From Botryllus schlosseri (taxonomy: Eukaryota), in assembly GCA_051294905.1 (NCBI GenBank), contig CM119371.1:14758001-14822000 (forward strand): 64,000 nt of DNA, written 5' to 3'. How positions within the stretch are numbered: position 1 is the stretch's first letter; each line of letters opens with the position of its first letter. The notes beneath the pieces were generated by a model that was not told where the DNA came from, searched no databases, and worked only from the letters and a program-made list of their open reading frames with translations. Of this stretch, positions 1 through 60,300 are shown piece after piece. Made by a program: the position numbers and the translations under genes.

Positions 1-747
1 CATGATGCGATGTTGGATTTCCCGGAGGAATTCACAGCTATTTCCCTGCACTCATATATTTATGTGTTTTGTGAAGCTAAATCTGTTCATCGGCTCAATT
101 TTCGGAGAAAAAATTCAAAATGGGAAAAGATGGATGATATGATTTGCGACCATGGTTTGTCTCCAAGCTCAGTTTGTTTAACTGGATCCATAATCGTTAT
201 CGGAGGAAGTAGTTTTACAGAAAAAGCTGACGTCGAAAAATTTGACCCATCTGTTAATCAATGGTTTCTACTGCCAAATAAACCGTCGGCCATTTCTAAT
301 GCAAGTCTCGTGTCATTGGATGGTTCCATCTATTGTATCGGAGGTTGGCGAGATGAAGTCGAAGTTTCTTCATTTTGCAGATTCACTCCATCATCATCAG
401 AGTGGATTGATCTCGAGCCCATGAGATATCCTGTATGTGAGAGTGGTGTTGTTGCAGTTGATCAAAAGATATTTGTGACCGGTGGGTGGAGTGAAGATGA
501 GTCCCTCAACAATGTAGAATGTTACGATGTCACTTCAGCTCAATGGACTTCATTACCATCTATGAATTCATGTCATGGCAAGAATACTGTTTATCGCATC
601 GGTGATTGGATTTTTGTAGTGGATGCATTTGACAGTTCTCATGTGATTGAGAAGTACGATTCAATGAACAAAAAATGGCATAGAGTGAAAGAAGCTGATA
701 AACCTCTCTATCTCTGCGGATCTGTCATGGTGAAGGAATATGGTTGA
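1..747 (+). CDS. Kelch-repeat C-terminal part of a BTB-BACK-Kelch protein; 5' end lies outside the window
   Basis: Frame is open from base 1 (HDAMLDF...). Kelch motifs IIVIGG, IYCIGG, IFVTGG, VECYD...W. Colinear with the C-terminal half of the 7716-9329 protein. Confidence 0.9.
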   Translation, partial: HDAMLDFPEEFTAISLHSYIYVFCEAKSVHRLNFRRKNSKWEKMDDMICDHGLSPSSVCLTGSIIVIGGSSFTEKADVEKFDPSVNQWFLLPNKPSAISNASLVSLDGSIYCIGGWRDEVEVSSFCRFTPSSSEWIDLEPMRYPVCESGVVAVDQKIFVTGGWSEDESLNNVECYDVTSAQWTSLPSMNSCHGKNTVYRIGDWIFVVDAFDSSHVIEKYDSMNKKWHRVKEADKPLYLCGSVMVKEYG

Positions 748-1001
748 CGGATGACGCAGTATATTGTAAAGTGAACTAACTACCTCTGTGAGTAGACTAA
801 TGTTTAAACATGCATTGTTGAGCTTGGAATAAGTCTCAGTTGTGCTGAAGCTTCAAAGTGATGTTTGACTGTGTTTGAAACACTGTTTTATTGTAGTATG
901 ATCTGGTTGTACATCTATTTGGAGACGGCTTTTTAAGTAAGAAAATTATTATTTGGTAATTAGCTAATGACCATTCGTCGTTGCAGCTGATGGGTCTGGC
1001 G

Positions 1002-4335: not shown

Positions 4336-7300
4336 TAGGGTTGTCCATAATTTGGAAAATCTTACAAATCCTCGGTTGTAATGTCTTATTCGATAGATTA
4401 TTGATAAAAAAACGACACTGAGCCTGAAAGAAGCTCACAGAAAGGCCGTTAAGATTTCGTGCAAAGCGTTTGAAAGTAGCTGCCGAAGAATGGGCGTGCC
4501 ACCGACCATAGAACGGCGAGAAGACTAGTAATCAAGAAACCACGGCTCTTGATTGGATAATCGGCTATGCTTCAATGACCACGTCAGCAGCAGCTTGCTG
4601 ATTAGGTGAACAAGGAGTCTGCTACTGGCGGCGATTCTGAAAGCGCATTGTATGTAGGTTGACAGATAATGATTTAGGATTGATTAAGGGTACGTTGAGG
4701 TACGAAATACATGATGAACAAACAACAGCTGCTTCACAAAAACGTCTAAAGCATGACTGCTTTATTGTGAAAGAAACCGCCGTAGCCTATATGCCTTGTT
4801 TTCAACGAGGGAAAGCATAGGCGCTTATGCAAGTGGCGACGGATTCCTAGTTTCAGAAATAATATATCATTATTGAATACAAAGATAAAGCTTAACAATG
4901 ACACTATAGTTTGTGTGATCTCATTGGGCTCAGGTTGTAGTACATAGTTGAAGTTTTGAAAGCTCTAAGGGTCGGCTGAATCAGCGGGTTATGCTTGGCA
5001 CTTGTCAGATGCTTGCATCAAACTGTATTCACTTGCAAGTGTTGTCAGAGTCCTTGATGATGACGCAGAAAAGAGGCGTAAAAGTAAGCACATAATATGC
5101 TGGATATGATATGTCAAATTCCTTAATAATCGCGCAGAAAAGGGGTGTAAAGGTAAACACAGACAATGCTGCATAGTGCATAGTATCCAGCATAGTTTGC
5201 ATATCATATCAAGCAGGGTCTGTGCTTGCATTTAAACCTCGTTTCTGCGACATCATTAGGGACTTTGAAAACATTTACAAGTGAATTCAATTTGCTGCAA
5301 ACATCTGATGAGTGCTAAGCCTAACCGTCTGGTTCAGCCGATCGCTAGAGCATTCAAAACTTCAACTATGTACTGCAACCTGAGCCCAATAAGATCACCT
5401 AACTTATAGTGTCATTGTTAAGCTTTATCTTTGTATTCAATAATGATATATTATTTCTGAAACTAGGAATCCGTCGCCACTTGCATAAGCGCCTATGATT
5501 TACCTCGTTGAAAACAAGGCATATAGGCTACAGCGGTTTCCTTCACAATGAAGCGGTCATGCTTCAGACGTTTTTGTGAAGCAGCTGTTGTTTGTACATC
5601 ATGTATTTCGTACCTCAAGATACCTTGAATCAATCCTAAATCATTATCTGTCAACCTACATATAATGCGCTTTCAGAATCGCCGCCAGTAGCAGACTCCT
5701 TGTTCACCTAATCAGCAAGCTGCTGCTGACGTGGTCATTGAAGCATGGCCGATTATCCAATCAAGAGCCGTGGTTTCTTGATTACTAGTCTTCTCGCCGT
5801 TCTATTGTCGGTGGCACGCCCATTCTTCGGCAGCTACTTTCAAACGCTTTGCACGAAATCTTAACGGCCATTCTGTGAGCTTCTTTCAGGCTCAGTGTCG
5901 TTTTTTATCAATAATCTATCGAATAAGACATTACAACCGAGGATTTGTAAGATTTTCCAAATTATGGACAACCCTAGTGAACAAGGAGTCTGCTACTGGC
6001 GGCGATTCTGAAAGCGCATTGTATGTAGGTTGACAGATAATGATTTAGGATTGATTCAAGGTATCTTGAGGTACGAAATACATGATGTACAAACAACAGC
6101 TGCTTCACAAAAACGTCTAAAGCATGACCGCTTCATTGTGAAGGAAACCGCTGTAGCCTATATGCCTTGTTTTCAACGAGGTAAAGCATAGGCGCTTATG
6201 CAAGTGGCGACGGATTCCTAGTTTCAGAAATAATATATCATTATTGAATACAAAGATAAAGCTTAACAATGACACTATAAGTTAGGTGATCTTATTGGGC
6301 TCAGGTTGCAGTACATAGTTGAAGTTTTGAATGCTCTAGCGATCGGCTGAACCAGACGGTTAGGCTTAGCACTCATCAGATGTTTGCAGCAAATTGAATT
6401 CACTTGTAAATGTTTTCAAAGTCCCTAATGATGTCGCAGAAACGAGGTTTAAATGCAAGCACAGACCCTGCTTGATATGATATGCAAACTATGCTGGATA
6501 CTATGCACTATGCAGCATTGTCTGTGTTTACCTTTACACCCCTTTTCTGCGCGATTATTAAGGAATTTGACATATCATATCCAGCATATTATGTGCTTAC
6601 TTTTACGCCTCTTTTGTGCGTCATCATCAAGGACTCTGACAACACTTGCAAGTGAATACAGTTTGATGCAAGCATCTGACAAGTGCCAAGCATAACCCGC
6701 TGATTCAGCCGACCCTTAGAGCTTTCAAACCTTCAACTATGTACTACAACCTGAGCCCAATGAGATCACACAAACTATAGTGTCATTGTTAAGCTTTATC
6801 TTTGTATTCAATAATGATATATTATTTCTGAAACTAGGAATCCGTCGCCACTTGCATAAGCGCCTATGCTTTCCCTCGTTGAAAACAAGGCATATAGGCT
6901 ACGGCGGTTTCTTTCACAATAAAGCAGTCATGCTTTAGACGTTTTTGTGAAGCAGCTGTTGTTTGTTCATCATGTATTTCGTACCTCAACGTACCCTTAA
7001 TCAATCCTAAATCATTATCTGTCAACCTACATACAATGCGCTTTCAGAATCGCCGCCAGTAGCAGACTCCTTGTTCACCTAATCAGCAAGCTGCTGCTGA
7101 CGTGGTCATTGAAGCATAGCCGATTATCCAATCAAGAGCCGTGGTTTCTTGATTACTAGTCTTCTCGCCGTTCTATGGTCGGTGGCACGCCCATTCTTCG
7201 GCAGCTACTTTCAAACGCTTTGCAGGAAATCTTAACGGCCTTTCTGTGAGCTTCTTTCAGGCTCAGTGTCGTTTTTTATCAATAATCTATCGAATAAGAC

Positions 7301-7347
7301 ATTACAACCGAGGATTTGTAAGATTTTCCAAATTATGGACAACCCTA
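4336..7347. mobile_element. hAT-type foldback element, present as a palindromic 3-kb composite
   Basis: Ends TAGGGTTGTCCATAATTTGG...CCAAATTATGGACAACCCTA; 8-bp TSD TTGTACAG at 4328-4335 and 7348-7355. Internal terminus at 5976; arms ~650 bp. A homologous empty site is present near 53730-53745. Confidence 0.92.
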
Positions 7348-7715: not shown

Positions 7716-9329
7716 ATGCAGGTTGTTTGTCAAGATGTGGCAAGACATGCTATGAGGATGCTCGAGGAATTACATCGAATGAAGCAAGATGATGATCATT
7801 GTGATTTCATCATCCAAGTCGGAGATGATGTCTATCGTACACACAAAAATGTATTGTCGGCTGGTTCCGCTTATTTTAGAGCCATGTTAAAGTATGACAC
7901 GAAGGAGAGTCGCGACAGAAAAGTTGTCTTGAAAGATGTGGATTCTCATTGTGTGAAAAATTGCATCGATTTCATATATTCGGGTAAATTTGAGATTCCT
8001 GATGGAAGTATCATTGAACTTCTTCACGCCGCAATGATGATGCAGCTGGATGACGTAAAGCAAGCCGTATCTAATATTTTGGAGGAATCAATTACCATTA
8101 AAAATTACTTCTCTACCAGAAATGTGAGTGATATTTATGGACTGGCTAATGTTTCTTTGAGATGCAGAATATTTTTACAAGATAACATCATAGAAATCTC
8201 AGACCAAGCGGGATTTGAAAGCATTGACAAAGACGACCTTCTCGGCCTTCTGAAGTCGGGAAAATTGAAATTATGGGAAGAAGAAAAACTTGCATTATCG
8301 CTCAAGTGGATTGACAAATCTCAAAGTAAAAGCGAATTTTTGCATGAATTTCTCGAAGTAATCAAGTTTGATCTAATATCCCCGGCATATTTGCAACAGA
8401 TTTTAGAAACTCACCCCCACATAAGTAATGACTCCGAGCTGTACAAGTTATTCACTAGTGATATCTGGAAAGCTTCTATTAAGGCAAAAGAAGATGATGA
8501 TGCTGACAAATTGATAATTCTTTTTGATGATGACTCAAAATGCCTCCGATCCTTCAATCCAATAACCGAGGAAATAGAAAAGTTTCATGATGCAAAGTTG
8601 GAGTTCTCAATGGATTTCACAGCGATTTCTCTGGACTCATATATTTATGTCTTTTGTAAAGCTAAATCTGTTCATCGACTCAATTTTCAGAGAAAAAATT
8701 CGAAATGGGAAAAGATGGATGATATGATATGCGACCATGGTTCATCTCCAAGCTCAGTTTGTTTAACCGGATCCATAATCGTTATCGGAGGAAGTGGTTT
8801 TACAGAAAAAGCTGATGTCGAAAGATTTGACCCATCTGTAAATCAATGGTTTTTACTGCCAAACAAACCGTCAGCAATTTCCAATGCTAGTCTCGTATCG
8901 TTGGATGGTTCCATCTATTGTATCGGAGGTTGGCGAGATGGTGCAGAAGTTTCTTCATTCTGCAGACTCACTCCATCCTCATCAGAGTGGGTTGATCTCG
9001 CGCCAATGAGATATCCTGCTGATGGCTGTGGTGTTGTTGCAGTTGACCAAAAGATATTTGTGACGAGTGGGATGACTGAAGATGATATCCTCAACAATGT
9101 AGAATGTTACAATGTTACTTCAGCTCAATGGACTTCGTTGTCATCTATGAATTTAACTCATGGCAACAATAGTGCTTATCGCATCAGTAATTGGATTTTT
9201 GTAGTCGATGAGTTTGGTGACTCTCATGACATTGAGAAGTACGATTTATGGAACAAAAAATGGTGTAACATGGAAAAAGAACCAAATCATTTGTTCGAAG
9301 TTTGCGGATCTGTAATGGTGAAGCTATAG
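7716..9329 (+). CDS. BTB-BACK-Kelch (KLHL-like) protein, intact, intronless CDS, 537 aa from first ATG
   Basis: BTB (CDFIIQV...HKNVLSAGSAYFRAML), BACK-like helical region (WEEEKL...KWI), Kelch repeats. ORF track starts at TTG 7704; first ATG is 7716. Confidence 0.93.
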   Translation: MQVVCQDVARHAMRMLEELHRMKQDDDHCDFIIQVGDDVYRTHKNVLSAGSAYFRAMLKYDTKESRDRKVVLKDVDSHCVKNCIDFIYSGKFEIPDGSIIELLHAAMMMQLDDVKQAVSNILEESITIKNYFSTRNVSDIYGLANVSLRCRIFLQDNIIEISDQAGFESIDKDDLLGLLKSGKLKLWEEEKLALSLKWIDKSQSKSEFLHEFLEVIKFDLISPAYLQQILETHPHISNDSELYKLFTSDIWKASIKAKEDDDADKLIILFDDDSKCLRSFNPITEEIEKFHDAKLEFSMDFTAISLDSYIYVFCKAKSVHRLNFQRKNSKWEKMDDMICDHGSSPSSVCLTGSIIVIGGSGFTEKADVERFDPSVNQWFLLPNKPSAISNASLVSLDGSIYCIGGWRDGAEVSSFCRLTPSSSEWVDLAPMRYPADGCGVVAVDQKIFVTSGMTEDDILNNVECYNVTSAQWTSLSSMNLTHGNNSAYRISNWIFVVDEFGDSHDIEKYDLWNKKWCNMEKEPNHLFEVCGSVMVKL

Positions 9330-11951: not shown

Positions 11952-14295
11952 ATGGTCATTTGTCAGAATGTGGAGCAACATGCTGTGAATATGATGGTGG
12001 AACTAAATCGAATGAAGGAAGATAAGGATCATTGTGATTTTGCAATTGAAGTAGGAAACGACGTCTACTACGCCCGCAAAAATATATTGTCGGCTGGCTC
12101 TGATTATTTCAGAGCTATGTTGAAACATGACACCAAAGAGAGTCGAGAGAGTAGAGTAGTTTTTAAAGATGTCGATTCCGAATGTGTCAAAATCTGCATC
12201 GATTCTATATATTCCAGTAAAATTGAAATTTCGGATGGAAAAATGATTGAACTTCTTCACATCTCAATCTTGATGCAGTTGGAAGGTGTTAAGCATTCAA
12301 TATCCGGTATATTGGCTGATACAATTACCGTTGAGAATTATTTCTCCACAAGAAATGTTGGTGATATTTATGGACTGGGTGTTGTTTCTTCAAGATGCAG
12401 GATATTTTTACAAGAAAATATTATGGAAATCGCAAACCAAGCTGGATTTGACAGCATTGAAAAAAATGACATTATGAGTGTTTTGAAGTCGACGAAATCA
12501 AAGTTATTGGAAGAAGAAAAACTAGAGCTATCGCTCAAATGGGCCGAAAGATGTGAAAAGAAGAAGGAATATTTGTATGAATGTCTTGAATTTTTTGACT
12601 TCAATGAAATCTCCCCAACATTTTTGCAACATCTTCTAGAAAAGAACCCCAATATCAGGAATAATTATAAGTTGAATATGTTGATCAGAGGACATCTTCA
12701 GGAAGCATCGGTTGAACTGGTAAAAACAACCGAGGTTATAATTCTTTTTGATGAGGAAACAGATTGTATTCGGTCCTTTAATCCAATTTCGGAGAAAACA
12801 TCCAAGTTCCACAATGCTGGGTTTAGGCGTTTTAATTTTTTCACAGCAATTTACCTCGACTTCCATGTTTACATTTTATGCAAGGGTAAATCCGTTTATC
12901 GACTCAATGTTCAAAGAAAAATTCAAAATGGCAAAATATGGAAGACATGATTTGTGAACACGGGACGGATCCTTGCTCAGTGTCATTGTGCTGGTCAATA
13001 TTTGTCATTGGAGGAAGTGAAATAGGACAATATCGCATTGAAACTACTGATGTGTTGAGAATTATTTCTCTACAAGAAATGTTGCTGATGTTTATGGACT
13101 CGATGACATTTCTTCAGTGTGTAGAGAATTTCTACAAGAAAATATAAGAGAGATCGAAAACCAAGCTGAATTCGGTAGCGTTGACAAAAATGATATTATC
13201 AGTGTTTTGGAATCGGAGAAATCGATTTTGTGGGAGGAAGAAAAACTGAAGGTATTGCTCAAGTGGATTGAGACATGTCAAAAAAAGAAGGAATATTTGC
13301 ATGAATGTCTCGAATTGATAGAGTTTGACGGAATCTCACCAACATTTTTGCAGCATCTTCTAGAAACTCATCCCATTATCAGGAATGATGCCAAGTCATA
13401 TGAGTTGATCCACAGACATGACCTGGAAGTATCAGTTGAACGGGTCAACAAAAAAGAAATGATAATTCTTTTTGATTTGGACGCAGATTGTATGCGATCT
13501 TTTAATCCAGTTTCCGAGAAAATAACTAGGTTCCACGATGCGAAGTTTACGCATTTTAAATCTTTTACAACTATCGTTCTTGAGTCGTATGTTTACATTT
13601 TATGCGAGAATAGATCTGTTCATCGACTCGATTTTCGAAGAAAAAATTCAATATGGCAAAGGATGGAAGATATGTTATGTCGTCATGGTACATATCCTTC
13701 CTCGGTGTCATTGTGCGGATCAATATTTGTCCTTGGAGGAAGCTATGACCCGGAACTAAATTTTGTGGAACGGTTTGATCCTTCTTTAAATCGATGGTTT
13801 CTAATGGAAAACAACCATGCAGCAGATTATGGTGCAAGTCACGGGCCATTGGATGATCCTGTGTATTGTATCGGAGGTGGTGGTGAGGATTTTCAGCTTT
13901 CTGCAGTCTGCAGATTCACTCCATCCTCATCAGAGTGGGTTGACCTTGAACCGATGAGATATCATGTCTGTCATAGTGGTGTTGTTGCAGTTGATCGAAA
14001 GATATTTGTGACCGGCGGTTTGAGTGGAAAAGAGCTCATCAACAATGTAGAATGTTACGATGTCACATCAGCTCAGTGGTCTTCATTACCATCTATGAAT
14101 GTTTGTGATGAGGGCCATGCTGTTTATCACATCGGCAATTGGATTTATGCGGTGAATTGGTATCACGATTCCGATGACATTGAGAAGTACGATATATTGA
14201 ACAAGAAATGGTATAGCTTGAAAAAAGAAGAAAATGATTATGCTTATTGGACTTTGACTTTCGGACTCCGAGGATCTGCAATGGTGAGAGTATAG
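11952..14295 (+). pseudogene. Chimeric BTB-BACK-Kelch pseudogene: 5' part of one paralogue fused to the 3' part of the next
   Basis: BTB-BACK to ~12920, a 1-nt shorter A-run (frameshift), first Kelch repeat to ~13052, then an abrupt switch to BACK-coding sequence matching 38691 onward. 13117-14295 is open to the normal stop. Confidence 0.88.
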
Positions 14296-14793: not shown

Positions 14794-16407
14794 ATGATCA
14801 TGGTGCAGGTTGCTATTAAACGTGCAGAGAAACGTGCAGTGAAGATGATGCAGGAATTATATCGAATGAAGCAAGATCAAGATCATTGTGATTTCATAGT
14901 TCAAGTCGGGAATGATGTCTATCACGCTCACAGAAATATATTGTCAGCCGGTTCGGATTATTTCAGAGCTATGCTGAAGCATGATACAAAAGAGAGTCGC
15001 AAAGGAAGAGCTGTATTAGAAGATGTAGATTCCGAGTGTGTGAAAAGTTGCATCAATTTCATATACTCAAGCAAATTTGAGATTCCTGATGGCAAAATGC
15101 TCGAACTTCTTCACGTCGCAATCATGATGCAGTTAGAAGATGTAAAGGATGCGATATCCGATATTTTGATTGAATCAATTAGCACTGAGAATTACTTCTC
15201 TACAAGACATGTTGGTGATATTTATGGACTGGTAGATGTGTCTTCAGATTGCAGAGAATTTCTACGAGAAAATATCATGGAAATCGCAAACCAAGCTGGA
15301 TTCGGGAGCGTGGAAAAAGATGAACTTCTCGGTCTTTTGAAGTCGGGAAAATCCAAATTATGGGAAGAAGAAAAACTTATGTTATTACTCAAGTGGATCG
15401 ACAAATGCCACAGTAAAGGGGAATATTTGCGTGAAGGTCTTAAAGCGATCTACTTTGATAAAATATCTCCAGCGTATTTGCAACATGTTATACAAACTCA
15501 ACCCCTTATAAGCAAAGATTATGAATTGTACAAGATAATTGCTCGATATATTTTGAATGCTTCTAACAAGGCACAAGAAGAAAATGCTGCTTCTGAATTG
15601 ATTATTCTTTTTGATCGGGAAGGAGAATGCCTCCGATCCTTCAATCCAGTAACCGAGCAAATAGAAATGTTCCACGAAGCGAAGTTTCAGTCCTCGTTGA
15701 ATTTCACCGCAATTACATGCGACTCGTATATTTACGTTATATGCGAGACTAAATCTGTTTTTCGACTCCACTTTCATTGCAAAAAATCAAAATGGGAAAA
15801 GACCGACAGTATGATTTGTGACCATGGTATCTTTCCTCACTCTGTTTGTTCATCCGGGTGCATATTTGTCATTGGTGGCAGTTATCTTACAACAACCAGG
15901 GACGTGGAAAGATTCGACGCATCTGTAAATCAATGGTTCCAGCTGGAGAACAAACCTACAGTGATTTCTGATGCAGGTCTCGTATCATTGAATGATTACA
16001 TCTACTGTATCGGAGGTAAAGGGGAGGATGGCAATTTTGTTTCTTCATTCTGCAGATTCAGTCCATCGTCATCAGTGTGGGTTGACCTCGAGCCAATGAG
16101 ATATCCGCTTGATGACTGTGGTGTTGTTGCAGTTGATCAAAGAATATTTGTGAGCGGTAGTTGTAGTATTAATTCTGTCGAATGTTACGATGTCCTTTCA
16201 GCACAGTGGACTTCGTTGTCATCTATGATTCGTTGTCGTGGTTGGACTACTACATATCTAATTGGCAACTGGATTTATGCAGTAGATGAGTGTGGCCTTT
16301 CAGATAATATTGAGAAGTACGATTTATCGAAGAAGGAATGGTATGACATTCGTTTGAATGCAGGTCCGTCATTTTGTGTATGCGGAACTGTAATGGTTAA
16401 GGTATAG
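14794..16407 (+). CDS. BTB-BACK-Kelch protein, intact
   Basis: Full domain set in one ORF; closest paralogue is 41294-42922. The start ATG could be 14794 or 14800. Confidence 0.92.
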   Translation: MIMVQVAIKRAEKRAVKMMQELYRMKQDQDHCDFIVQVGNDVYHAHRNILSAGSDYFRAMLKHDTKESRKGRAVLEDVDSECVKSCINFIYSSKFEIPDGKMLELLHVAIMMQLEDVKDAISDILIESISTENYFSTRHVGDIYGLVDVSSDCREFLRENIMEIANQAGFGSVEKDELLGLLKSGKSKLWEEEKLMLLLKWIDKCHSKGEYLREGLKAIYFDKISPAYLQHVIQTQPLISKDYELYKIIARYILNASNKAQEENAASELIILFDREGECLRSFNPVTEQIEMFHEAKFQSSLNFTAITCDSYIYVICETKSVFRLHFHCKKSKWEKTDSMICDHGIFPHSVCSSGCIFVIGGSYLTTTRDVERFDASVNQWFQLENKPTVISDAGLVSLNDYIYCIGGKGEDGNFVSSFCRFSPSSSVWVDLEPMRYPLDDCGVVAVDQRIFVSGSCSINSVECYDVLSAQWTSLSSMIRCRGWTTTYLIGNWIYAVDECGLSDNIEKYDLSKKEWYDIRLNAGPSFCVCGTVMVKV

Positions 16408-19400: not shown

Positions 19401-19989
19401 CCATTTTTGAAAGTCCACCGGTCCGCCAAATATTTTTCGAAATTTTACCGGTCCGCGAGGTCAAAAAGGTTGAGAACCACTGATCTAGACTTTAATAACC
19501 GCTTCAGATTACCATACTTCGTTATTGGCCCTCTCTGGCTAGATGCTCATTGAGCCGTTAGCCAACATTATTAGAAGCATGTCAGCCACAATTGGACTTT
19601 GCTTTACTATGTGTTATCTGTAATTTCCAGTTTTTGCTTAATTTATTCTCATTGAGTACACACTCTCAGCGTATGTACTTCTGTTAGTACATGATGAGTT
19701 TTCTTTTGCATAACGTGTTGGGTCTTGTGTTGTCAGATTTGAATTGTATGTATTGTTTATTTCATTTGTTTCTTGTTACAGAGTTCGGTGAATAAGTCCT
19801 ATCTCTAGGTCAGGGGTCGGCAACCTTTTGGTAGTTACGGGCCAAATTTCGAGTGTACAACTTTTTCGCGGGCCGGAATTTTTCATAATACTATATTTTA
19901 TGCTCACTTCGGTATATTATCCTACATTGCTGCAATCTCAATCATACCTTTAACAAAACACATTTATTTACACTTCAACAACGCAGAAT

Positions 19990-20870: not shown

Positions 20871-20972
20871 TCATTGTGGCCAAAACACTATTCAGGTTTG
20901 TTTTCTTGGCGCACAATGTTTTCTTGGCGCACAATGCCTTCTGGTGAATTTAACTATAAATAACTAACCTAC

Positions 20973-21107
20973 TGTAGTAGCGTGACTGACGGTCTGTCTA
21001 ATATACGAGACGTGAGTTCTCAAGCAGCCATGTATTCAGTGACGACCAAGCACCGAAGCACCTGCGATGTCGTCACACCCTAGTGGCGCCATAGAGCTAC
21101 CACTACA
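20973..21107 (-). repeat. 3' LTR (135 bp)
   Basis: TGTAGTAGCG...CTACCACTACA; no difference from 25469-25603 seen by eye. Confidence 0.97.
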
Positions 21108-25415: not shown

Positions 25416-25468
25416 AATTCTGAGTAGCTAAGTAATTGCTATCAGCTGCTTTTATACTGCTGCCACCA

Positions 25469-29651: not shown

Positions 29652-31259
29652 ATGGTGCGAAAGGTATGTTTGGATGCAGAAAAGCATGGAGTGTCTATGA
29701 TGGCTGAATTACATCAAATGAAGCAACATAACGATCATTGTGATTTCATAATCCAAGTCGGAGATGATGTGTATCCTACCCACAAAAATGTATTGTCGGC
29801 TGGTTCCGCATATTTTAGAGCGATGCTGAAACACGACACAGAAGAGAGTCACGGAGGAAGAGTCGTTTTAAAAGATGTGGATTCAGAATGTGTCAAAAGC
29901 TGCATTGATGTTATATATTCGAGTAAATTTGAGATCCCAGATGGAAAAATCATTGAACTTTTTCACGTCGCTATTATGATGCAGTTGGAAGATATGAGAG
30001 ATGCAATATCCGATATTTTGGCAGAATCAATTACTGCTGTTGAGAATTACTTCTCTACAAGAAATGCTGGTGATATTTATGGACTGATTGATGTCACATC
30101 AAGATGCAGAATATTTTTAGAAGAAAATAGCATGGAAATCGCAAATGAGGCTGGATTTGGAAGCGTTGAAAGAAGTGACTTCTTGAATCTCTTGAAATCG
30201 TCAAAATCAAAGTTATGGGAAGAAGATAAATTAGTTTTAACGCTCAAGTGGATTGAGGGATGCGAAAAGAAGGAATGTTTGTATGAATGTCTAGAATTGA
30301 TCGAATTTGTCGAAATTTCTCCTGTGTTTTTGCAAGAACTTCTAGAAACTCACTCCATTTTCAAGCGTGACTCCGAGTTGGACAATTTGATCAGGAGCCA
30401 TATTCAAAAAGCATCGGTTGAACAGGTAAAGAAAAGGGAATTGATACTCCTTTTTGATGGGGACACCGACTGTATTCGATCCTTTGATCCAATTTCAGAG
30501 AAAATAACCAAGTTTCACGATGCAAAGTTTCGGCATTTCAATCAATTTGCAATAATTGTTCTCGACCTCTACATTTACATTTTATGTCAGGATAGATCCG
30601 TTCACCGACTCAATTTTAAGAAAAAAAAATCAAATTGGCAAAAGATGAAAGATATGATTTTTGACCATGGGTCACTCCCTTGCTCAGTGTCATTGTCAGG
30701 ATTCATATTTGTCATCGGCAGTGGATGTTTTCACCAAGCATCAAACGATGTGGAAAGATTTGACACATCTGCAAATCAATGGATTCAACTTCAAAAAAGG
30801 CCTACAGCAATTTGTGATGCAAGCCTTGTATCACTGGATGATTCCATTTATTGTATAGGAGGCTGGCGAGATCGTGTCGAACTTTCTTCATTCTGCAGAT
30901 TCACTCCATCTTCGTCACAATGGGTTGACCTTGAACCATTGGGATATACTGTGTCTAACTCTGGTGCTGTTGCAATTGATCAAAAGATATTTGTGATAGG
31001 TGGGTTGAGGTACTTTTCTACCGTTGATATTGTACAATGTTACGATGTCACCTCGGCTCAATGGACTTCATTGCCATCTTTGCATTGTGGAATTTGCAGC
31101 GCAGCTTATCACATCAACAACTGGATTTATATAATGGATGGGTACGTCAAATCTTATTACTTTGGGAAGTACGATTTGATAAAGCGGAAATGGTATACAG
31201 TGGATGACGGTACTGACCCAACTTTCCGACTTCACGGATCTGCGATGGTGAAAGTATAG
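29652..31259 (+). CDS. BTB-BACK-Kelch protein, intact, 535 aa
   Basis: Single ORF with all domains, preceded by a pyrimidine tract + CAG (29610-29625). Confidence 0.93.
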   Translation: MVRKVCLDAEKHGVSMMAELHQMKQHNDHCDFIIQVGDDVYPTHKNVLSAGSAYFRAMLKHDTEESHGGRVVLKDVDSECVKSCIDVIYSSKFEIPDGKIIELFHVAIMMQLEDMRDAISDILAESITAVENYFSTRNAGDIYGLIDVTSRCRIFLEENSMEIANEAGFGSVERSDFLNLLKSSKSKLWEEDKLVLTLKWIEGCEKKECLYECLELIEFVEISPVFLQELLETHSIFKRDSELDNLIRSHIQKASVEQVKKRELILLFDGDTDCIRSFDPISEKITKFHDAKFRHFNQFAIIVLDLYIYILCQDRSVHRLNFKKKKSNWQKMKDMIFDHGSLPCSVSLSGFIFVIGSGCFHQASNDVERFDTSANQWIQLQKRPTAICDASLVSLDDSIYCIGGWRDRVELSSFCRFTPSSSQWVDLEPLGYTVSNSGAVAIDQKIFVIGGLRYFSTVDIVQCYDVTSAQWTSLPSLHCGICSAAYHINNWIYIMDGYVKSYYFGKYDLIKRKWYTVDDGTDPTFRLHGSAMVKV

Positions 31260-37969: not shown

Positions 37970-38063
37970 GCTTACAGCACTGACTGATACAACATCATAA
38001 GTATATTTAATTTTGAAGCAGTACTTATCTCTATTGTATATAGTTTACATGTCATTGTTGATC

Positions 38064-38183
38064 ATGGTGCAAATTGTTTTGCAACATGTGAAGGAACGTG
38101 CAGTTAGTATGATGAAGGAGTTACATCAGATGAAGCAAGATCAAGATCATTGCGATTTCATAGTTCCAGTCTGAAAGGATGTG
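38064..38183 (+). pseudogene. N-terminal fragment of another BTB-Kelch paralogue
   Basis: MVQIVLQHVKERAVSMMKELHQMKQDQDHCDFIVPV*KDV, then joins sequence resembling the upstream flank of the other paralogues. Confidence 0.85.
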
Positions 38184-38301: not shown

Positions 38302-39934
38302 ATGATGATGGTGCCGGTTGCTATTAAAGATACAGAGAAACGTACAGTGAAGATGATGGAGGAATTATATCGAATGAAGCAAGGTCAAGATCATTGTGAT
38401 TTCATAGTTCAAGTCGGAAATGATGTCTATCACACCTACAAAAATATAATATTGACTGGTTCGGATTATTTCAAAGCCATGTTAAAACATGATACGAAAG
38501 AAAGTCAAGAAAATAGAGTTGTACTTCAAGATGTAGACTCCGAATGTGTCAAAAACTGCATCGATTTTATATATTTCAGTAAATTTGAGGTTCTTGATGA
38601 AAAAATCATTGAACTTCTTCACGTCGCAATCATTATGCAGTTGGAAGATCTGACGCATGCAATATGCGAAATCTTGATAGATTCAATATCTGTTGAGAAT
38701 TATTTCTCTACAAGAAATGTTGCTGATGTTTATGGACTCGATGACATTTCTTCAGTGTGTAGAGAATTTCTACAAGAAAATATCAGAGAGATCGAAAACC
38801 AAGCTGGATTCGGTAGCGTTGACAAAAATGATATTATCAGTGTTTTGGAATCGGAGAAATCGATTTTGTGGGAGGAAGAAAAACTGAAGGTATTGCTCAA
38901 GTGGATTGAGACATGTCAAAAAAAGAAGGAATATTTGCATGAGTGCCTCGAATTGATAGAGTTTGACGGAATCTCACCAACATTTTTGCAGCATCTTGTA
39001 GAAACTCACCCCATTATCAGGAATGATGCCAAGTCATATGAGTTGATCCACAGACATTACTTGGAAGTATCAGTTGAACGGGTCAACAAAAAAGAAAGGA
39101 TAATTCTTTTTGATTTGGACGCAGATTGTATGCGATCTTTTAATCCGGTTTCCGAGAAAAATAACTAGGTTCCACGATGCGAAGTTTACGCATTTTAAAT
39201 CTTTTACAACCATCGTTCTCAAGTCGTATGTTTACATTTTATGCGAGAATAGATCTGTTCATCGACTCGATTTTCGAAGAAAAAATTCAAAATGGCAAAG
39301 GATGGATGATATGTTATGTCGCCATGGTACATATCCTTCCTCGGTGTCATTGTGCGGATCAATATTTGTCCTCGGAGGAAGTTACGACCCGGAACTAAAT
39401 TTTGTGGAACGGTTTGATCCTTCTTTAAATCGATGGTTTCTAATAGAAAACAACCATGCAGCAGATTATGGTGCAAGTCACGTGTCATTGGATGATTCAG
39501 TGTATTGTATTGGAGGTGGTGATGAGAATTTCCAGGTTTCTGCATTCTGCAGATTCACTCCATCCTCATCAGAGTGGGTTGACGTTGAACCGATGAGATA
39601 TCCTGTGTGTGATAGTGGTGTCCTTGCAGTTGATCGAAAGATATTTGTGACCGGCGGTTTGAGTTGAAAGGAGCTCATCAACAATGTAGAATGTTACGAT
39701 GTCACATCAGCACAGTGGTCTTCATTACCATCTATGAATGTTTGTGATGAGGGTCATGCTGTTTATCACATCTGCAATTGGCTTTTTGCGGTGAATTGGT
39801 TGAACGATTCTGATGACATTGAGAAGTACGATATATTGAACAAGAAATGGTATAGCTTGAAAAAAGAAGAAAATGATTATGGTTATGGGACTTTGACTTT
39901 CGGACTCCAAGGATCTGCAATGGTGAGAGTATAG
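38302..39934 (+). pseudogene. BTB-BACK-Kelch pseudogene
   Basis: One extra A at ~39157-39161 relative to 13511-13530, and a TGA at 39665-39667 where the paralogue has GGA. Confidence 0.88.
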
Positions 39935-41293: not shown

Positions 41294-42922
41294 ATGATGA
41301 TCATGGTGCAAGTTGCTATTAAACGTGCAGAGAAACGTGCAGTGAAGATGATGGAGGAATTATATCGAATGAAGCAAGATCAAGATCATTGTGATTTCAT
41401 AGTTCAAGTGGGGAATGATGTCTATCACGCTCACAGAAATATATTGCCAGCAGGTTCGGATTATTTCAGAGCTATGCTAAAGCATGATACAAAAGAGAGT
41501 CGCCAAGGAAGAGTTGTATTAGAAGATGTAGATTCCGAGTGTGTCAAAAGTTGCATCAATTTCATATATTCAAGCAAATTTGAGATTCCTGATGGCAAAA
41601 TGCTCGAACTTCTTCACGTCGCAATCATGATGCAGTTAGAAGATGTAAAGTATGCGATATCCGATATTTTGATTGAATCAATTACCACTGAGAATTACTT
41701 CTCTACAAGAAATGTTGGTGATATTTATGGACTGGTAGGTGTGTCTTCAGATTGCAGAGAATTTTTACAAGAAAATATCATGGAAATCTCAAACCAAGCT
41801 GGATTCGGGAGCGTGGAAAAAGATGAACTTCTCGGTCTTTTTAAGTCGGGAAAATCCAAATTATGGGAAGAAGAAAAACTTATGTTATTACTCAAGTGGA
41901 TCGACAAATGCCACAGTAAAGAGGAATATTTGCATGAAGGTCTCAAAGTGATTCACTTTGATAAAATCTCTCCGGCGTATTTGCAACATGTTTTACAAAC
42001 TCAACCCCATATAAGCAACGACTATGAATTGTACAAGTTAATTGCTGGATATATTTTGAATGCTTCTAACAAGGCAAAAGAAGAAAATGCTGCTACTGAA
42101 TTGATTATTCTCTTTGATAGGAAAGGAGAATGCCTCCGATCCTTCAATCCAGTAACAGAGCAAATAGAAATGTTCCATGAAGCGAAATTTCAGTCCTCGT
42201 TGAATTTCGCTGCAATTACCTTCGACTCGTATATTTACGTTCTATGCGAGACTAAATCTGTTTTTCGACTCAACTTTCATTGCAAAAATTCGAAATGGGA
42301 AAAGACCGACAGTATGATTTGTGACCATGGTATCTTTCCTCACTCAGTTTGTTCATCCAGATACATATTCGTTATCGGTGGCAGTTATCTTACAACAACC
42401 AAAGACGTGGAAAGATTCGACGCATCTGTAAATCAATGGTTTCAACTGGAGAACAAACCTGCATTGATATCTGATGTAGGTCTCGTATCATTGAACGGTT
42501 ACATCTATTGTATCGGAGGTAAAGGGGAGGATGGCGATTTTGTTTCTTCATTCTGCAGATTCAGTCCATCCTCGTCTGTATGGGTTGACCTCGAGCCAAT
42601 GAGATATCCGCTTGATGACTGTGGTGTTGTTGCAGTTGATCAAAGAATATTTGTGAGCGGTGGTTGGAGTGAAGGAGACGCTATTAATACTGTTGAATGT
42701 TATGATGTCCTTTCAGCACAGTGGACTTCGTTGCCATCTATGATTCATTGTCGTGGTTGGACTACCACATATCTAATTGGCAACTGGATTTATGCAGTAG
42801 ATGAGTGTGGCCTTTCAGATAATATTGAGAAGTATGATTTATCGAACAACGAATGGTATGAAATTCGTTTGAATGCAGGTCCATCATTTTCTGTATGTGG
42901 AACTGTAATGGTTAAGGTATAG
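41294..42922 (+). CDS. BTB-BACK-Kelch protein, intact
   Basis: Single ORF with all domains; near-identical to the 14794-16407 protein. Confidence 0.93.
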   Translation: MMIMVQVAIKRAEKRAVKMMEELYRMKQDQDHCDFIVQVGNDVYHAHRNILPAGSDYFRAMLKHDTKESRQGRVVLEDVDSECVKSCINFIYSSKFEIPDGKMLELLHVAIMMQLEDVKYAISDILIESITTENYFSTRNVGDIYGLVGVSSDCREFLQENIMEISNQAGFGSVEKDELLGLFKSGKSKLWEEEKLMLLLKWIDKCHSKEEYLHEGLKVIHFDKISPAYLQHVLQTQPHISNDYELYKLIAGYILNASNKAKEENAATELIILFDRKGECLRSFNPVTEQIEMFHEAKFQSSLNFAAITFDSYIYVLCETKSVFRLNFHCKNSKWEKTDSMICDHGIFPHSVCSSRYIFVIGGSYLTTTKDVERFDASVNQWFQLENKPALISDVGLVSLNGYIYCIGGKGEDGDFVSSFCRFSPSSSVWVDLEPMRYPLDDCGVVAVDQRIFVSGGWSEGDAINTVECYDVLSAQWTSLPSMIHCRGWTTTYLIGNWIYAVDECGLSDNIEKYDLSNNEWYEIRLNAGPSFSVCGTVMVKV

Positions 42923-53302: not shown

Positions 53303-55632
53303 TACTCGAGACTCAGACGGCCAAGACCGACATTTCCTTGTGATTTCGAGGAGAAGTCAAGTAACCACACTCTTGGGATTTCGTCTATTGGTACTGGTAC
53401 TTGAAAATGCGACCAGAAACTGCTAAACGTAAAGAAAATTAGTATATTATAAATTCGAACGAATCGATATCACCAAACAATTATAAAAAGTGGGTTTAAA
53501 AGGACTTAAAGTGGAACTGCTAGCGTGCAAACTTACGGCATTTACACAATTTACTATACCACTTGTGATAGTATTTCGAAAGGGTTAATGAAACGTTTGG
53601 ATCACAGCATTCACTACCAAACGAATAGTTAGAAATCACAAACGTAGCTTCAATACTCAATGTATGATGGGAAAATGTCCATCGGTCAAAGAAAAATCGA
53701 AGAATGATCTTGCCTCGATCATATTTTATGCTTCTTCTACAGCTAGGTAACTCAACCCTGGCTATAAGTATTTTATGTTTTCTGTTTTCATTTCCTCATT
53801 CAGGTAGATGCTTTCTGTAACCAGTCGAAGAGGCTAATGTTAATGCTTTTGTTCTACTCTTAGAATTGACTGACTTCTATTTGAAAATTTCGAAAATGTG
53901 TGATTGTATTCCACGGAAATTATCATTATTAACGTAGGTGGTTACCGGCAGTTATTAGTGCAGGTTATTTTGTCGATATGAATGATTTGTGTGCGCTTTG
54001 ACTCTAACCATGTGTATTTTAAAAACAGCACTATAATCTATAAAAATATCCTTGACAAGTTATTGGTTACCATTATGCAGGTTGTTTATCAAGATGTGGC
54101 AAGGCATGCTATGAGGATGCTCGAGGAATTACATCGAATGAAGCAAGATCATGATCATTGTGATTTCATAATCCAAGTCAGAGATGATGTCTATCGTACA
54201 CACAAAAATGTATTGTCGGCTGGTTCCGCTTATTTTAGAGCCATGTTGAAGTATGACACGAAAGAGAGTCGCGACAGAAAAGTTGTTTTGAAAGATGTGG
54301 ATTCTCAGTGTGTGAAAAATTGCATCGATTTCATATATTCGGGTAAATTTGAGATTCCTGATGGAAGAATCATTGAACTTCTTCACGTCGCAATGATGAT
54401 GCAGCTGGATGATGTAAAGCAAGCCGTATCCGATATTATGGAGGAATCAATCACCATTGAAAATTTCTTCTCTACCAGAAATGTTGGTGATATTTATGGA
54501 CTGGTTGATGTTTCTTCGAGATGCAGTATATTTTTACAAGAAAATATCATGGAAATCTCAGACCAAGCTGGATTTGTAAGCATTGAAAAAGATGACCTTC
54601 TCAGTCTTTTGAAGTCAGGGAAACTGAAATTATGGGAAGAAGAAAAACTTGCATTATCGCTCAAATGGATCGAGAAATGTCAAAGTAAAAGCAAATATTT
54701 ACACGAATTTCTCAAAGTAATCAAGTTTTATCTAATATCCCCGCCATATTTACAACAGATTTTAGAAACTGACCCCCGTCTAAGGCCCTTTTCATACCGG
54801 ATTTACGAAACTCTTTCGGGAACAAGTTCCGAAACAGGCGATGTTCACATAGAGAAAAAATTACCGAAACAGTTCCGGGAAAAAGGCGCGTTCATACCTA
54901 TTTAGAGTTACCGCGAACTTATGTTCATACAGGTCGTTTTTTCGGTAAATTCTCGGGAAATTATGGCCAGTATGAACGCGATTCTCCGTAAGTGTTGATA
55001 GTTACGAAACCATGTCTGTGGGGTGTTCCAGTTGTAATATGCTTGTGGAAAACAATGTGGGAGAGGCATATACGTGAGATGCGGAGAAGTTGGCTCCAAC
55101 TTTTAGCTATGGGATGTTGCGGATATGCCTTCTCGAAGTGTATGGGGCTCTATACTCAATATCTGTATCAGTAATAGAGCCCGAGCATGTTCCTGCCGCT
55201 GGCTTGTATATTATCAACCGAAGCTGAGAGCAGAAACTGAAAGCCAGCAAAGAGGATAGAGTCCTGGAATGAAAAGAACCACCGATCACATCTGGGTACG
55301 ACTGTTACGAGGTACGACAAAGTCAGTTTATCTTTGTGATTGCTGTATAATGGTTTAGGTAAATCTAATCTTATGTACACTGTACAGAGAAACCAGGGAA
55401 ATCAAGAAATTCGTGAGAGAAACATTTGGTATATTCTGCGACGAGCTTCGAGACCATAACGAAAAGCAACAAGCAAATTACACGAACTCAATTTCTCTTG
55501 CTTGCTGAGTAGCTGTCGCTCTTTGGAGGCTAGCCAATGAAGCCAATCGTTTATAGATCCAGGTAAACATCAGATGTGTTTTAAGAAGGCAACTGTCACA
55601 AGTTGATTTTAATAAAAATTGCTGGTGCCTAG

Positions 55633-56147
55633 TAGGGCTAGCCACAATGATTCGATTCGAGTACTCGAATCTGAATCGAGTATCAACTTTATTGATTCGA
55701 GGCTAGTCGTAAAATACTACTTTTCGAGTAGTCTACTGAAATTATACTGAAAGTTGATTTACTAACTAGAATTATACCGTAGTTTTGATAAACTTTTCCA
55801 CTGAGTAAACCTTGAAACCTTGATTGGCCGTGTCGCAACATACGAGATATAGTACAAAGCTACGAACGTTGCTGGAAATAACACATTTCCGAAGTCATGG
55901 CCATCCCATATAACACTGTCAAGCAGTGCAATGAAAACGGTATGGTCGAAAAAACATTGAAGTATCTTTAATGTGACGGACAATAGGCGTTATGTTCTTT
56001 ATGGTGGCATAAAAGGTAGCCTACACATTTGAATTTTGGCATGGTACATTGTGTTGTGATGTCATCATGATGATACTCGACTCGACTCGAAGCGTAATAA
56101 GTGATTCAGAATCGAATCACTCAGGTACTCTATTTTGCCCAGCCGTA
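55633..56147. mobile_element. hAT-type MITE nested in the Harbinger element
   Basis: TAGGGCTAGCC...GCCCAGCCGTA; imperfect TSD GTGCCTAG/GTGCATAG; ATTCGA/CTCGA repeats. Confidence 0.7.
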
Positions 56148-56742
56148 GTGCATAGTAATATTTCTATATTTGTCATGGCGGAATGTCAGCCAGTTTTTGA
56201 GTAGCATACCACTGCAAAAAGGTCAGACAAATTTGGTCTTGAATCATTATGTCAGAAAAAGAAGTCTGAAAGACCAATTGTTCTTGCCAAGTAGGCTACT
56301 TTCTGTCTCAAAAGTAAGACCCAAATTGATGGAAAATAGACTTAAACTGGAAACTGAGCAATCAACACAATGACTTTGACTCGAGTCATAAAACCATGAC
56401 TCGAACTTGACGCTCTGCTCGATGAGTTGGACTCGGATTTGACTCGGTGATAAATTGAAAGTGACTCGACTTGAATCAAGTCAAAACTATTGAAGTGGGA
56501 TCGACTTGTGACTTGGTTACAACCCTGCTCACTTGACTGAAATTGAGACCAAATTTGTATATTTTTTGTAGTGTAGTCAGACATGTACATCAACCTACTT
56601 ATTTATTTACTTATAGTTACTAAAACTATGTAGTTCTAGTTGTGGATTTCAAAAAATACAGTTTCTGGTTCTAGTTGCGGATATTTGAAAGTGAGTAGTT
56701 CTAGTTCTAATAGTAGATTTTGAAAAGTTGATAGTTCTAGTT

Positions 56743-57397
56743 CAAGGCCGGCCAACCCGTGGCCCGCGAGTTAATTTCCGAAATCAGTAGTATTATCAAA
56801 AATGGATTGCACAGATTGTGAACTTGCAAGGCCAATCAAAAATTTGATTAGTCTGGCCGCAGCACTTGAGATGTGATGACTGAAATATCAGTTCCGACGC
56901 ATTGATAGGTCTATGAGCCAGTCACATATTGGTATATCTTCATACACTACAATAAAGCAGAATACTTTGCGATAGATTAATCAAAAGTAAAAAATTTCTA
57001 CACGCTTAGCGCAACATCCTGTCACTCGATTTCTTGCTTTTAATATTGTTACCCCTTTGTGAAAATGAAAGAACGCCTAATCTATCAGATTGAGTCTAAC
57101 TATATATATATTCGCAACCTCCTGTTTGCGCTCGCAGAAAGACCGCCGACTATGAAACCCAGGCACAAAATGATTGCCGCATGTTGGACGAAGGTGATAT
57201 CGATATGTCCAGGTGCCGAATAGTCCAGTCCTTGCAAACTGAGCCCAGCGATATACAGCAAGCTTACAATATAGTCAAGTGACAATATTATTTATTTATC
57301 AACTTCAAAAAATTTTCGTGCTTTGCGCGGCTAGTGGCTGGTGGAATAGTTCGTCAATCGAATGTGGTGATTTGGCTGAAAAGGTTGGCCACCGCTG
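56743..57397. mobile_element. hAT-type MITE within a TAGTTC-rich repeat inside the Harbinger element
   Basis: CAAGGCCGGCCAACC...GGTTGGCCACCGCTG; imperfect TSD TTCTAGTT/TTTTAGTT. Confidence 0.6.
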
Positions 57398-60300
57398 TTT
57401 TAGTTGCTAGTTTAAAAAATTCAGTAGTTCTAGTTGAAGTTGCGCATTTTGAAATTCCATTTTGAAATTCCAGTACTTTGTACAAGTCTGAGTGTTGTGG
57501 GTGGATAAAAAATTACCACAGCAACATTTGTACCAAACATGCATTTGCTGCATTCAAGTTTTTTCAGGATGACTTCATGATTGGGAGCCAGAGGGTTCCG
57601 TACTAGCCTTTTAGCCTACATAACTGATGACGCAGCCTATCCCTTTCAGCCCCGGCTCATGGAGCCTTTTCCCTGAAACACAAACAAAGCATAAGCTAAA
57701 GCTAATTTCAAATATGTAATACGAATTTCCTTTCTGCTGCCCTTAAAATTCACAATTGCTTTTTCAGAAACTTGGCAAAGCACACATGAAGGTTGAAAGA
57801 TTTTGGTCGACTGAAGGCGCGGTGCTCAGCTTTTCTCATAAACTGCAATCCGCTAAGGCCAGAAGATACAGAGGATGGTATACGCAATGAAGACAAGACC
57901 TGGTGGTGATCTAAGTATCGCTGGCCCAGACGTCGGAAATGCCCTGTGTGACTTTCTCAATAAACAATGCTCTTGCTTAACCAGATGTGTTTGTGCTGTT
58001 TCATTTTATTCATGAGAGAAACTATAACTTAATGCACACTTGCACAGTTCCGCCTTTTCACCTTTTTCATCAGTATCCTCCATCTAGACCTGCGAAAAGA
58101 TCAAATTAAGTTACACTTGCCTAACCTTGCATGACAAAGGAATGACTTGATTGTTTTCCTTTGTTATGCAACAAGAAAATGAAGGCATAGGTGAAAACCA
58201 AATTATGGCTTGGATGATGTACGATGGCTTACCAGCCAGTTGGTACAATTTGAATTTTGGTTAGTGAGTCAGAGCTAAGGACATCATTCTCTGCTGTGCT
58301 GCCACTATCAAAGCAGATGTTACTAAATCCCCTTTTCAGTAGGCGTATATGACGGTGAGTCGGTGACTAACCTACACACAGCATATCCGTGGTTAGAAAC
58401 TTCCCTTTGATGTAACAAATTTGGTAAGGGTTAAGATCACCTACCAAATTAGTGTTGAAGTGCTAACATTTTCAGGCAACTCACCCAATGCTGCATCATT
58501 TGGAGATGGTGTTCTACCTTTTAAGCCGTGCTCTGTTTACAAAACCACAGAAAAAAGAAGCCGACTAGTAGTCAGTGACTACGTATTGTGAGCACTGAGC
58601 ATACAGAATATAAATCCAAGAATAATGCATTCCCAACACCATTACCAAGAAGATCAAAATGCCGCAGGTATCTGACCTCGAAATACAAGCAGCCTGAATG
58701 AACAGCGCGTTACGGTAACTAAAAGTTTGATTGACAGCGTCCCTGGAACCCAGCTGCGCCATTCGTGTTCATACTCAGTCGGTCCCGTAAAAATCTCCGA
58801 AAATAAGCGCGTTCATACCGCCCCGAATCACCAGTGTTATGTTCACATAGAGGGGTTCCGGTAAACATTTTCGAGAAATGTTATTCCCGGAACCCCGGTA
58901 TGAAAAGGGCCTAAGTAACGACTTCGAGCTGTACAAGGTATTCAATGATCATATTATGAAAGCCTCCGTTAAGGCAAAAGAAGATAATGACGCTGACAAA
59001 ATGATAATTCTTTTTGATGATGTCGCAGAATGCCTCCGATCCTTTAATCCAATAACCGAGGAAATAGAAAAGTTCCATGATGCGGAGTTGCATTTCTCGT
59101 TGCATTTCACAGCGATTTCCCATGACTCATATATTTATGTCTTTTCTGAAGCTAAATCTTTTCATCGACTCAATTTCCAGAGAAAAAATTCAAAATGGGA
59201 AAAGATGGATGATATGATTTGTGACCATGGTATGTCTCCAAGCTCGGTTTATTTAACTGGATCCATAATCGTTATTGGAGGAAGTGGTTATGCAGAAAAA
59301 GCTGATGTCGAAAGATTTGACCCATCTGTAAATCAATGGTTTCTACTTCGAAACAAACCTACAGCAATTTCTGATGCAACTCTCGTGTCGTTGGATGGTT
59401 CCATCTATTATATCGGTGGTTGGCGAGATGGTGTCGAAGTTTCTTCATTCTGCAAATTCACTCCATCCTCATCAGAGTGGGTTGATCTCGAGCCAATGAG
59501 ATATCATGCTGATAGCTGTGGTGTTGTTGCAGTTGATCAAAAGATATTTGTAACCGGTGGGTATAGTGAAGAAGATACTGTCAACAATGTAGAATGTTAC
59601 GATGTTACTTCATCTCAATGGACTTCATTGCCATCTATGAATTCATGTCATGGTCGCAATACTGCTTTTTGCATCGGCAATTGGATATTTGTAGTGGACT
59701 GGCTTGGCAAATCCGATGACATTGAGAAGTACGATTTACTGAACAAAGAATGGCATGGCATTAAAAAAAATGAAGATCAATCTTTCGTAGTTGGCGGATC
59801 TGCAATGGTGAAGATATAAATGACTGGTTCTGAAACTAAATACCGCCATCACTTCTTAACGACATGACATATTGTAACATGAACTAAAAACCTCTGGTAT
59901 AATGTCCAAACAATAACGCTTGAGCTTGGAACAAGTTTCAGATGTGCTATCCTAATACATTTGATGTATTTCCTTGATGACCATTTCTCTTGAGCGACTT
60001 TTACGTCAAATTAGTCAGTCTTAGTACTCAAAGTAAAAAAAGTAGAAAATGCCTGGGTTCTAACCTAGTCACAAGGTTCCGAGTTTCAAGTCAATCTCAA
60101 GTCTGACTCGTAGCGTTTTGACTGAAATCCAACTCATTGTTTTGACTGTTCAGTTTCGAGTTGATCTTGGTAAATCCACTTTTCACAAATCTGCTTGGTG
60201 TTATCCAATGCTTTCATTCATAATATACCAATGTACCTCACTTTTACCAATTTCTGGTCTAACAGTACTAAATTACTAATAGATAAAATACCAATAGTGT

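Follow-up and report, generated by a model that had tools for sequence, protein, structure and literature searches.

Positive selection on the predicted target-binding loops of a tandem BTB-BACK-Kelch gene family in the tunicate Botryllus schlosseri

Proteins of the KLHL and KBTBD families, including KEAP1, KLHL22, KBTBD2, and KLHL12, are adaptors of the ubiquitin ligase CUL3. The DA and BC loops of their Kelch propeller are described as the substrate pocket, and as the most conserved part in the orthologue sets of KEAP1, KLHL2, KLHL3, and KLHL12 (PMC6650413). Lineage-specific families of other cullin adaptors (F-box and MATH-BTB) have expanded by birth and death in nematodes and plants. Their cullin-binding part is conserved and their substrate-binding part positively selected, as Thomas reportedly found in 2006. 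These expansions have been hypothesised, on indirect evidence, to serve pathogen defence (PMC1866355). We herein analysed a stretch of 64,000 nucleotides from Botryllus schlosseri (assembly GCA_051294905.1, contig CM119371.1, positions 14,758,001 to 14,822,000 of the forward strand; referred to as the window), which contains an array of nine BTB-BACK-Kelch gene bodies (W1 to W9). The array family shared the BTB-BACK-six-blade Kelch architecture with the KLHL/KBTBD adaptors, and a CUL3 interface, predicted to involve helices 2 and 5, may be a further common feature; however, it was only ~20% identical to them and the orthologue of none of them, it comprised more than 100 tandem copies with single-exon coding regions, and its pocket was the fastest-changing instead of the most conserved part. 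Its lineage-specific birth and death resembled that of these F-box and MATH-BTB expansions, from which it differed in its substrate module (a Kelch propeller), its host (a chordate), and the concentration of selection on ~23 codons ringing one pocket. On this evidence, the array family works like these expansions without being a member of them.

The principal finding was that ~23 positions on the predicted target-binding face changed faster than neutral on a nearly constant scaffold. We used our own implementation of GY94 site models on fixed trees, the M0 likelihoods of which were equal to those of IQ-TREE, with two sets of intact copies: cluster A (46 copies at 6.59-7.55 Mb on C1, the scaffold of the window; median identity, 79%) and cluster B (20 copies of the cluster to which the window belongs, leaving out the divergent L057). 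Twice the log-likelihood difference (2ΔL) between M8 and M8a in cluster A was 548 (530 with the F61 model), with a nonsynonymous/synonymous rate ratio (ω) of 3.6 on 6.5% of codons, and that between M1a and M2a was 657. The corresponding values in cluster B were 42 (ω 1.8) and 44. The selected sites were mostly located in DA/BC loops: 23 out of 28 in cluster A, in which these loops account for 108 of 539 codons (Fisher p 5e-13), and 15 out of 17 in cluster B, in which they account for a fifth of codons. The site-level dN/dS check suggested in the preliminary description gave an excess in the top-face loops in cluster A; the signal of cluster B was modest. The loops were labelled by motif anchors after viewing the site map, and hence not blind; the strands of the predicted model agreed with the labels. 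The single-ratio ω values of cluster A were 0.19 for BTB, 0.29 for the strands, 0.42 for the opposite-face loops, 0.94 for DA, and 1.40 for BC, and ranges of 0.19-0.21, 0.40-0.42, and 1.0-1.4 were obtained for BTB, the opposite-face loops, and BC, respectively. Selected sites outside the pocket included N-terminal codon 7 and BACK codons 204 and 211. In an alignment with PDB structures, selected positions were located at the tip of the DA loop and directly after the GG motif, where we take the NRF2 contacts of KEAP1 (e.g. R415 and Y572) to lie. A FUBAR-like grid flagged 68 sites, many outside the loops; it was uncalibrated and used for mean rates alone.

The change in the loops is in excess of chance. 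In simulations under the null model, 2ΔL was at most 2.9 with a single tree (12 runs), 14.1 with five segment trees (12 runs, with the scale grid at its edge), and 29.3 (ω up to 1.39) when leaves were fully shuffled every 20 or 60 codons (10 runs). These null runs also showed that M8 site counts are meaningless where ω is near 1. The 2ΔL of cluster A was still 413 after the removal of codons near indels, and Kelch segments on their own trees gave values of 119-151. The 23 loop codons were picked in cluster A and then re-tested in copies outside the picking. Their ω was 1.65-1.86 in cluster B, 2.24-2.51 for the 8 copies tested at 36 Mb, and 2.14 for a further 18 copies, each well above 1 (2ΔL 36-111); the W2 and W6 types gave 2.4 and 2.2, respectively. 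A tree-free ratio, with the proportion of nonsynonymous differences at the 23 codons divided by the gene-wide proportion of synonymous differences (pS), was 1.74 (1.30-2.24) for the W2 type and 1.45 (1.03-1.92) for copies on scaffold C14. Synonymous divergence was not raised in the BC loops (pS 0.224 vs 0.239 overall).

A Kelch query of the genome gave at least 151 matches, with 150 of 368 candidates scored. Among the 150 matches listed, 134 were on C1, 98 had an open frame of at least 530 residues (median identity among these intact copies, 61%), and 52 lacked a full frame. Most copies of the family were located in four clusters on C1: 6.5-8.2 Mb (the largest; 62 matches listed, 49 intact), 13.8-14.1 Mb (16 and 7), 14.6-15.8 Mb, which contains the window (38 and 21), and 35.8-36.3 Mb (11 and 9). 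The genome contained 126 exact matches to a tight BTB pattern, which 91 of the 98 intact copies fit, and the control contained 0; the family, thus, has at least 126 copies. The birth-and-death evolution and the lineage-specific expansion that had been proposed were both supported, the former by the matches without a full frame and by four broken copies among the nine in the window. A quick tree with 45 rows grouped 35 of the 36 genome copies in one clade with the homologous protein P0001 (SH-aLRT 95); L094 and three further proteins were placed just outside this clade, and the whole group was distant from named KLHLs. The nearest named relatives were four Styela clava proteins (P0139, P0141, P0142, and P0144), with 28-31% identity to the basal member L094. 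Their E-values were 1e-117 to 1e-94, whereas the best vertebrate match had one of 5e-46. These proteins, automatically named kelch-like 28, 38, and 12, also form several paralogues of 515-548 residues, but are no closer to L094 than the identities above. Atlas clusters near P0001, which serve as a lead only, comprised generic KLHL proteins alone (mollusc, chordate, and poxvirus). These comparisons, which outside styelids consisted of word-limited sequence searches, supported the family being a lineage-specific expansion of styelid sea squirts. Together with these relatives, an exon of the cellulose-synthase type in the genome, among animals a tunicate trait, indicates a styelid ascidian; a search for mitochondrial genes gave no match. 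The terms "kelch", "BTB", and "KLHL" were absent from the main text of the S. clava genome paper (PMC7540406), and no description of the family was found in listings of openly available literature or in the main text of tunicate genome papers. Two more distant single-frame Kelch regions, L095 (C5) and L096 (C16), showed 24-30% identity; the 8 kb retrieved for them contained no BTB match, and they are possibly a sister family.

The AlphaFold2 model of W8 consisted of a BTB-BACK body and a six-bladed propeller of 24 strands, closed by the C-terminal strand (mean predicted local distance difference test score (pLDDT), 90.8; predicted template modelling score, 0.55). The top Foldseek matches were KBTBD2 (8h37/8h36) and KLHL22 (8khp), in CUL3 complexes, the target template modelling score was ~0.8 to the Kelch domains of KLHL12 and KEAP1, and the best PDB sequence matches included KEAP1 6wcq and KLHL22 8khp. 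The genome carries a CUL3 gene on C14; the partner in the complex prediction was a stand-in (P0042) with 94% identity to the genome's own CUL3 exon. Residues 1-262 of W8 were placed on CUL3 residues 34-51 and 103-118 with a score of 0.75, versus 0.00 for the best of three controls; no fewer than 74% of contacts were common to the runs, and the partner had a pLDDT of 86. Among microbial pairs, the mark set for this score is reached by 51 of 78 that are solved and 2 of 108 that are mismatched; among eukaryotic pairs, the counts are 71 of 105 solved and 2 of 126 unrelated. Since like complexes have already been solved, this prediction shows likeness only. The 24 interface residues had an ω of 0.17, and Y57, A60, M61, and E68 were invariant in all 98 intact copies; a conserved CUL3 surface is, thus, predicted on the BTB/3-box, as expected if the earlier claim of CUL3 adaptors is correct. 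On the other hand, the family differed from the KLHL/KBTBD adaptors in carrying Thr ahead of the conserved Glu in the motif that binds CUL3 (T66-K-E68; 96 of the 98 copies), at a position that is hydrophobic in that motif.

Searches of the window (tblastn with four intact copies, and six-frame reading) detected the nine gene bodies and one 5' fragment of 46 codons, all on the + strand. Every gene body was collinear with intact copies, and, therefore, the array has no coding introns. This agreed with the preliminary description, except that only five copies were intact (W1, W2, W5, W6, and W8). The other four (W3, W4, W7, and W9) were damaged by two truncations, one frameshift plus stop, and one transposon insertion. 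PF00651 (BTB), PF07707 (BACK), and PF01344 (Kelch) were above the cut-off in all four intact window copies scanned with Pfam, and no F-box or MATH domain was found in the copies scanned. W1 (1..747) is the Kelch half of an intact gene for 538 residues, which starts 869 bases upstream of the window (full frame, L059); it forms a subfamily with W2 (7716..9329; intact, 537 residues) and W9. W3 (11952..13020) carries a frameshift near 12900-12950 and breaks off in blade 3, at the start of W4; W4 (13051..14295) is without nearly all of the BTB domain, and this junction, in which W4 starts at the BTB end directly after W3, looks like one deletion. W5 (14794..16407) has an intact frame of 537 residues with a four-codon deletion in the BC loop of blade 5, and W6 (29652..31259) is intact with 535 residues. 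The 5' fragment (38040..38183) is followed by W7 (38302..39934), which is broken by a shift of the frame near 39160 and, near 39665, by an in-frame stop, and by the intact W8 (41294..42922; 542 residues). W9 is separated into a 5' part with BTB and most of BACK (54075..54783) and a 3' part with the BACK end and Kelch propeller (58912..59819). The 4.1-kb gap between them was ruled out as an intron by terminal inverted repeats from GGCCC and a TAA target duplication: it is a DNA transposon of 4,128 bases (54784..58911; strand not assigned) with no frame of 95 or more residues, presumably PIF/Harbinger-like.

In self-BLAST, W4-W5 and W7-W8 were two copies of one block, with 94.5% (W4/W7) and 90.9% (W5/W8) identities, and are recent block duplicates. 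A run of the same gene types (W6, W4/W7, and repeated W5/W8) was found in inverted orientation at 15.09-15.20 Mb on C1 (L062-L069), pointing to a putative block duplication with inversion. Repeated blocks of several genes make up the window cluster, the subfamilies of which differ in behaviour. Two statements in the preliminary description need correction. All of the loop motifs that it quoted were present at the places given, but they did not differ in nearly every copy: PLDDC and RGWTT were common to W5 and W8, and DEGHA to W4 and W7. Similarly, the propeller framework was conserved, whereas each exact string quoted as near-invariant was present in only one to three copies.

At 93% likeness, RNA reads from two bulk runs covered the coding region of W6 ~1-2x, and those from one single-cell run reached 5x; a fourth run gave a single read in all. 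W6 was also covered in a third bulk run and by contigs of three older runs. The unique flanks of W6 were empty in the bulk runs, and its read cover may include reads from close paralogues. W6 was covered at a low depth, and W7 and W8 were nearly empty. No RNA run was listed as covering the W8 stretch, an outcome that was given no weight as evidence. In 62 of 98 copies, a pyrimidine-rich stretch with NCAG was located 12-110 bases 5' of the start codon (~27 bases 5' of ATG in W6), versus a mean of 14.9 (maximum, 27) in 200 shuffles. Since this acceptor-like signal precedes the start codon in these copies, the genes are probably not intron-free as transcripts; judged from sequence, the signal would mean an intron in the 5' untranslated region or the addition of a spliced leader, the latter of which has been described in B. 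schlosseri (PMC3691228). No spliced read joining a 5' exon to W6 was present among the joints shown, and a comparison of the upstream regions of the genes revealed no common block at a fixed distance from the start codons. A block of ~600-900 bases, oriented with the gene, was observed 1-8 kb upstream of ~10 of 12 cluster A genes (L110-L121) and was absent from the window; it is a candidate promoter or first exon. Three additional bases in W6 at position 30034 add one residue to the end of the BTB domain; contigs or reads of three other runs were without them, which is likely an allele difference. An Rfam scan gave no match.

Several other elements were found between the genes. A DNA transposon with an 8-base target duplication (19811-26495), which we take to be hAT-like, is the host of a nested long terminal repeat (LTR) retrotransposon (20973-25603), which has 99% identical LTRs, a 5-base target duplication, and a frame of 1242 residues on the - strand with reverse transcriptase, RNase H, and integrase. 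A 3-kb fold-back element (4336-7347) has two 1.3-kb arms that are 99% complementary, each of which is a palindrome, and an 8-base target duplication. Two adjoining frames at 34125-35215 encode 192 residues (a weak C2H2 finger) and 166 residues (no Pfam match). RNA reads in two runs skipped 34694-34754, which has GT..AG ends, and these frames are, therefore, a spliced transcript of a gene or transposon.

We propose, with moderate confidence, that the array encodes interchangeable CUL3 substrate receptors, the pocket of which has been repeatedly changed by selection, most likely to recognise fast-changing intracellular foreign proteins. Compact genes with single-exon coding regions have been copied in tandem and as multi-gene blocks, with many dying by frameshift, deletion, or transposon insertion; purifying selection constrains the BTB domain and propeller strands (ω 0.19 and 0.29), and positive selection acts on the ~23 DA/BC loop codons. 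The products, predicted to have a six-bladed propeller, would dock by the BTB/3-box on CUL3 helices 2 and 5. By analogy with KLHL biology, the pocket of each copy may bind a short target motif of its own, so as to bring the target to CUL3-RBX1 for ubiquitination and degradation, and viruses or other parasites inside the cell may supply the target proteins. The W5/W8 type, of which five copies with a constant pocket exist, would represent one specificity kept or raised in dose.

A number of observations weigh against this proposal, in which the immune role is an inference. Diversification is not uniform across the family: the signal of the window cluster is modest, and the five W5/W8-type copies, two of which are in the window, were nearly identical at the pocket, with an ω of 0.48 at the 23 codons and a tree-free ratio of 0.44 (0.11-0.84). 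This ω was not different from 1 (2ΔL 3.4) and was far from 2.2 (2ΔL ~20), with limited power because the copies are young; the data fit one specificity that was kept while being amplified. We ruled out uncollapsed alleles for the set of five, which are in tandem blocks on one scaffold; a single pair is possibly allelic. The tree-free intervals included 1 for the W6 type (1.34, 0.88-1.84) and the 36-Mb cluster (1.22, 0.99-1.45). Without codons near indels, the 2ΔL of cluster B decreased from 42 to 8.1, close to the range of the mosaic nulls of cluster A. The synonymous rate was somewhat raised at the 28 picked codons (alpha 1.8), and a few picked sites were CpG-rich (BACK 204 and 211, and loop 390), such that selection at these three may be inflated by hypermutation. 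The CUL3 complex score would indicate likeness, not binding, in a textbook pair with a stand-in CUL3. RNA depth was low, with ~1-2x for W6 and almost none for W7 and W8.

Genomic drift, namely, neutral growth and decay with tolerant surface loops, in which gene conversion and alignment errors mimic selection, appears to be very improbable. Many broken copies and low expression are consistent with it, as has been argued for plant F-box genes (PMC3030570), of 43 splits, segment trees had only 7-17 in common with the full tree, and cluster B lost most of its signal without indel-near codons. However, ω was 0.40-0.42 in the opposite-face loops versus 1.0-1.4 in the BC loops, mosaic nulls reached 29 against the 548 observed, and the scaffold and CUL3 surface were under purifying selection in the 98 intact copies. 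Moreover, the 23 codons exceeded an ω of 1 in independent copy sets, and did so by the tree-free ratio in two of five sets, with one more borderline. For cluster A, drift is, thus, already refuted in large part. Selection that acts on a binding face is presumably silent on which side does the chasing, and the pocket may instead change for escape, with copies that serve as guards or regulators of host proteins, or as decoys, while pathogen proteins bind them or mimic their targets. The selected sites outside the pocket (N-terminal codon 7, and BACK 204 and 211) may fit this explanation, and poxviruses own BTB-Kelch proteins (Atlas clusters near P0001), suggesting that the ligase is contested. 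Nevertheless, we consider escape improbable: it would usually need one or a few genes, not ~100 copies with different pockets, two of the outside-pocket sites are CpG-rich, and the quick tree, which contained no viral rows, gave no sign of a viral origin.

The same machinery may also have an internal opponent: in the germ line, the adaptors would likely clear away the proteins of transposons or other selfish elements, or they would take part in conflict between the cell lineages of fused colonies. We regard this as unlikely, but less so than escape or drift. Positive selection fits any arms race, the array is located among young transposons, including the LTR element with nearly identical repeats, and low bulk-RNA depth would fit expression in a rare cell type. 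Botryllid colonies are described as having polymorphic allorecognition (PMC12582321), and a Kelch gene labelled KLHL10, which need not belong to the array family, is reported as strongly up in fertile colonies (PMC4523013). On the other hand, transposons beside gene arrays are common and uninformative on targets, and the predicted fold has no signal or membrane segment; the array proteins, therefore, cannot be surface receptors of allorecognition.

In nematodes and plants, defence by diversified ubiquitin-ligase adaptors has so far been a proposal based on indirect evidence. This idea becomes testable with a Kelch-based counterpart in an invertebrate closely related to vertebrates, from a group that is kept in the laboratory: it offers single-exon coding regions, 23 mapped pocket codons, and the constant-pocket subfamily as an internal control. 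The family would also represent a natural library of ~100 different Kelch pockets on one predicted CUL3-docking scaffold. For B. schlosseri, we tentatively suggest, with somewhat less confidence than in the proposal above, that these genes may provide ~100 germline-encoded intracellular receptors that couple recognition to degradation, each pocket with its own specificity, against viruses and parasites or against foreign lineages in fused colonies; some specificities would turn over fast, and others, such as that of the W5/W8 type, would be kept constant and amplified.

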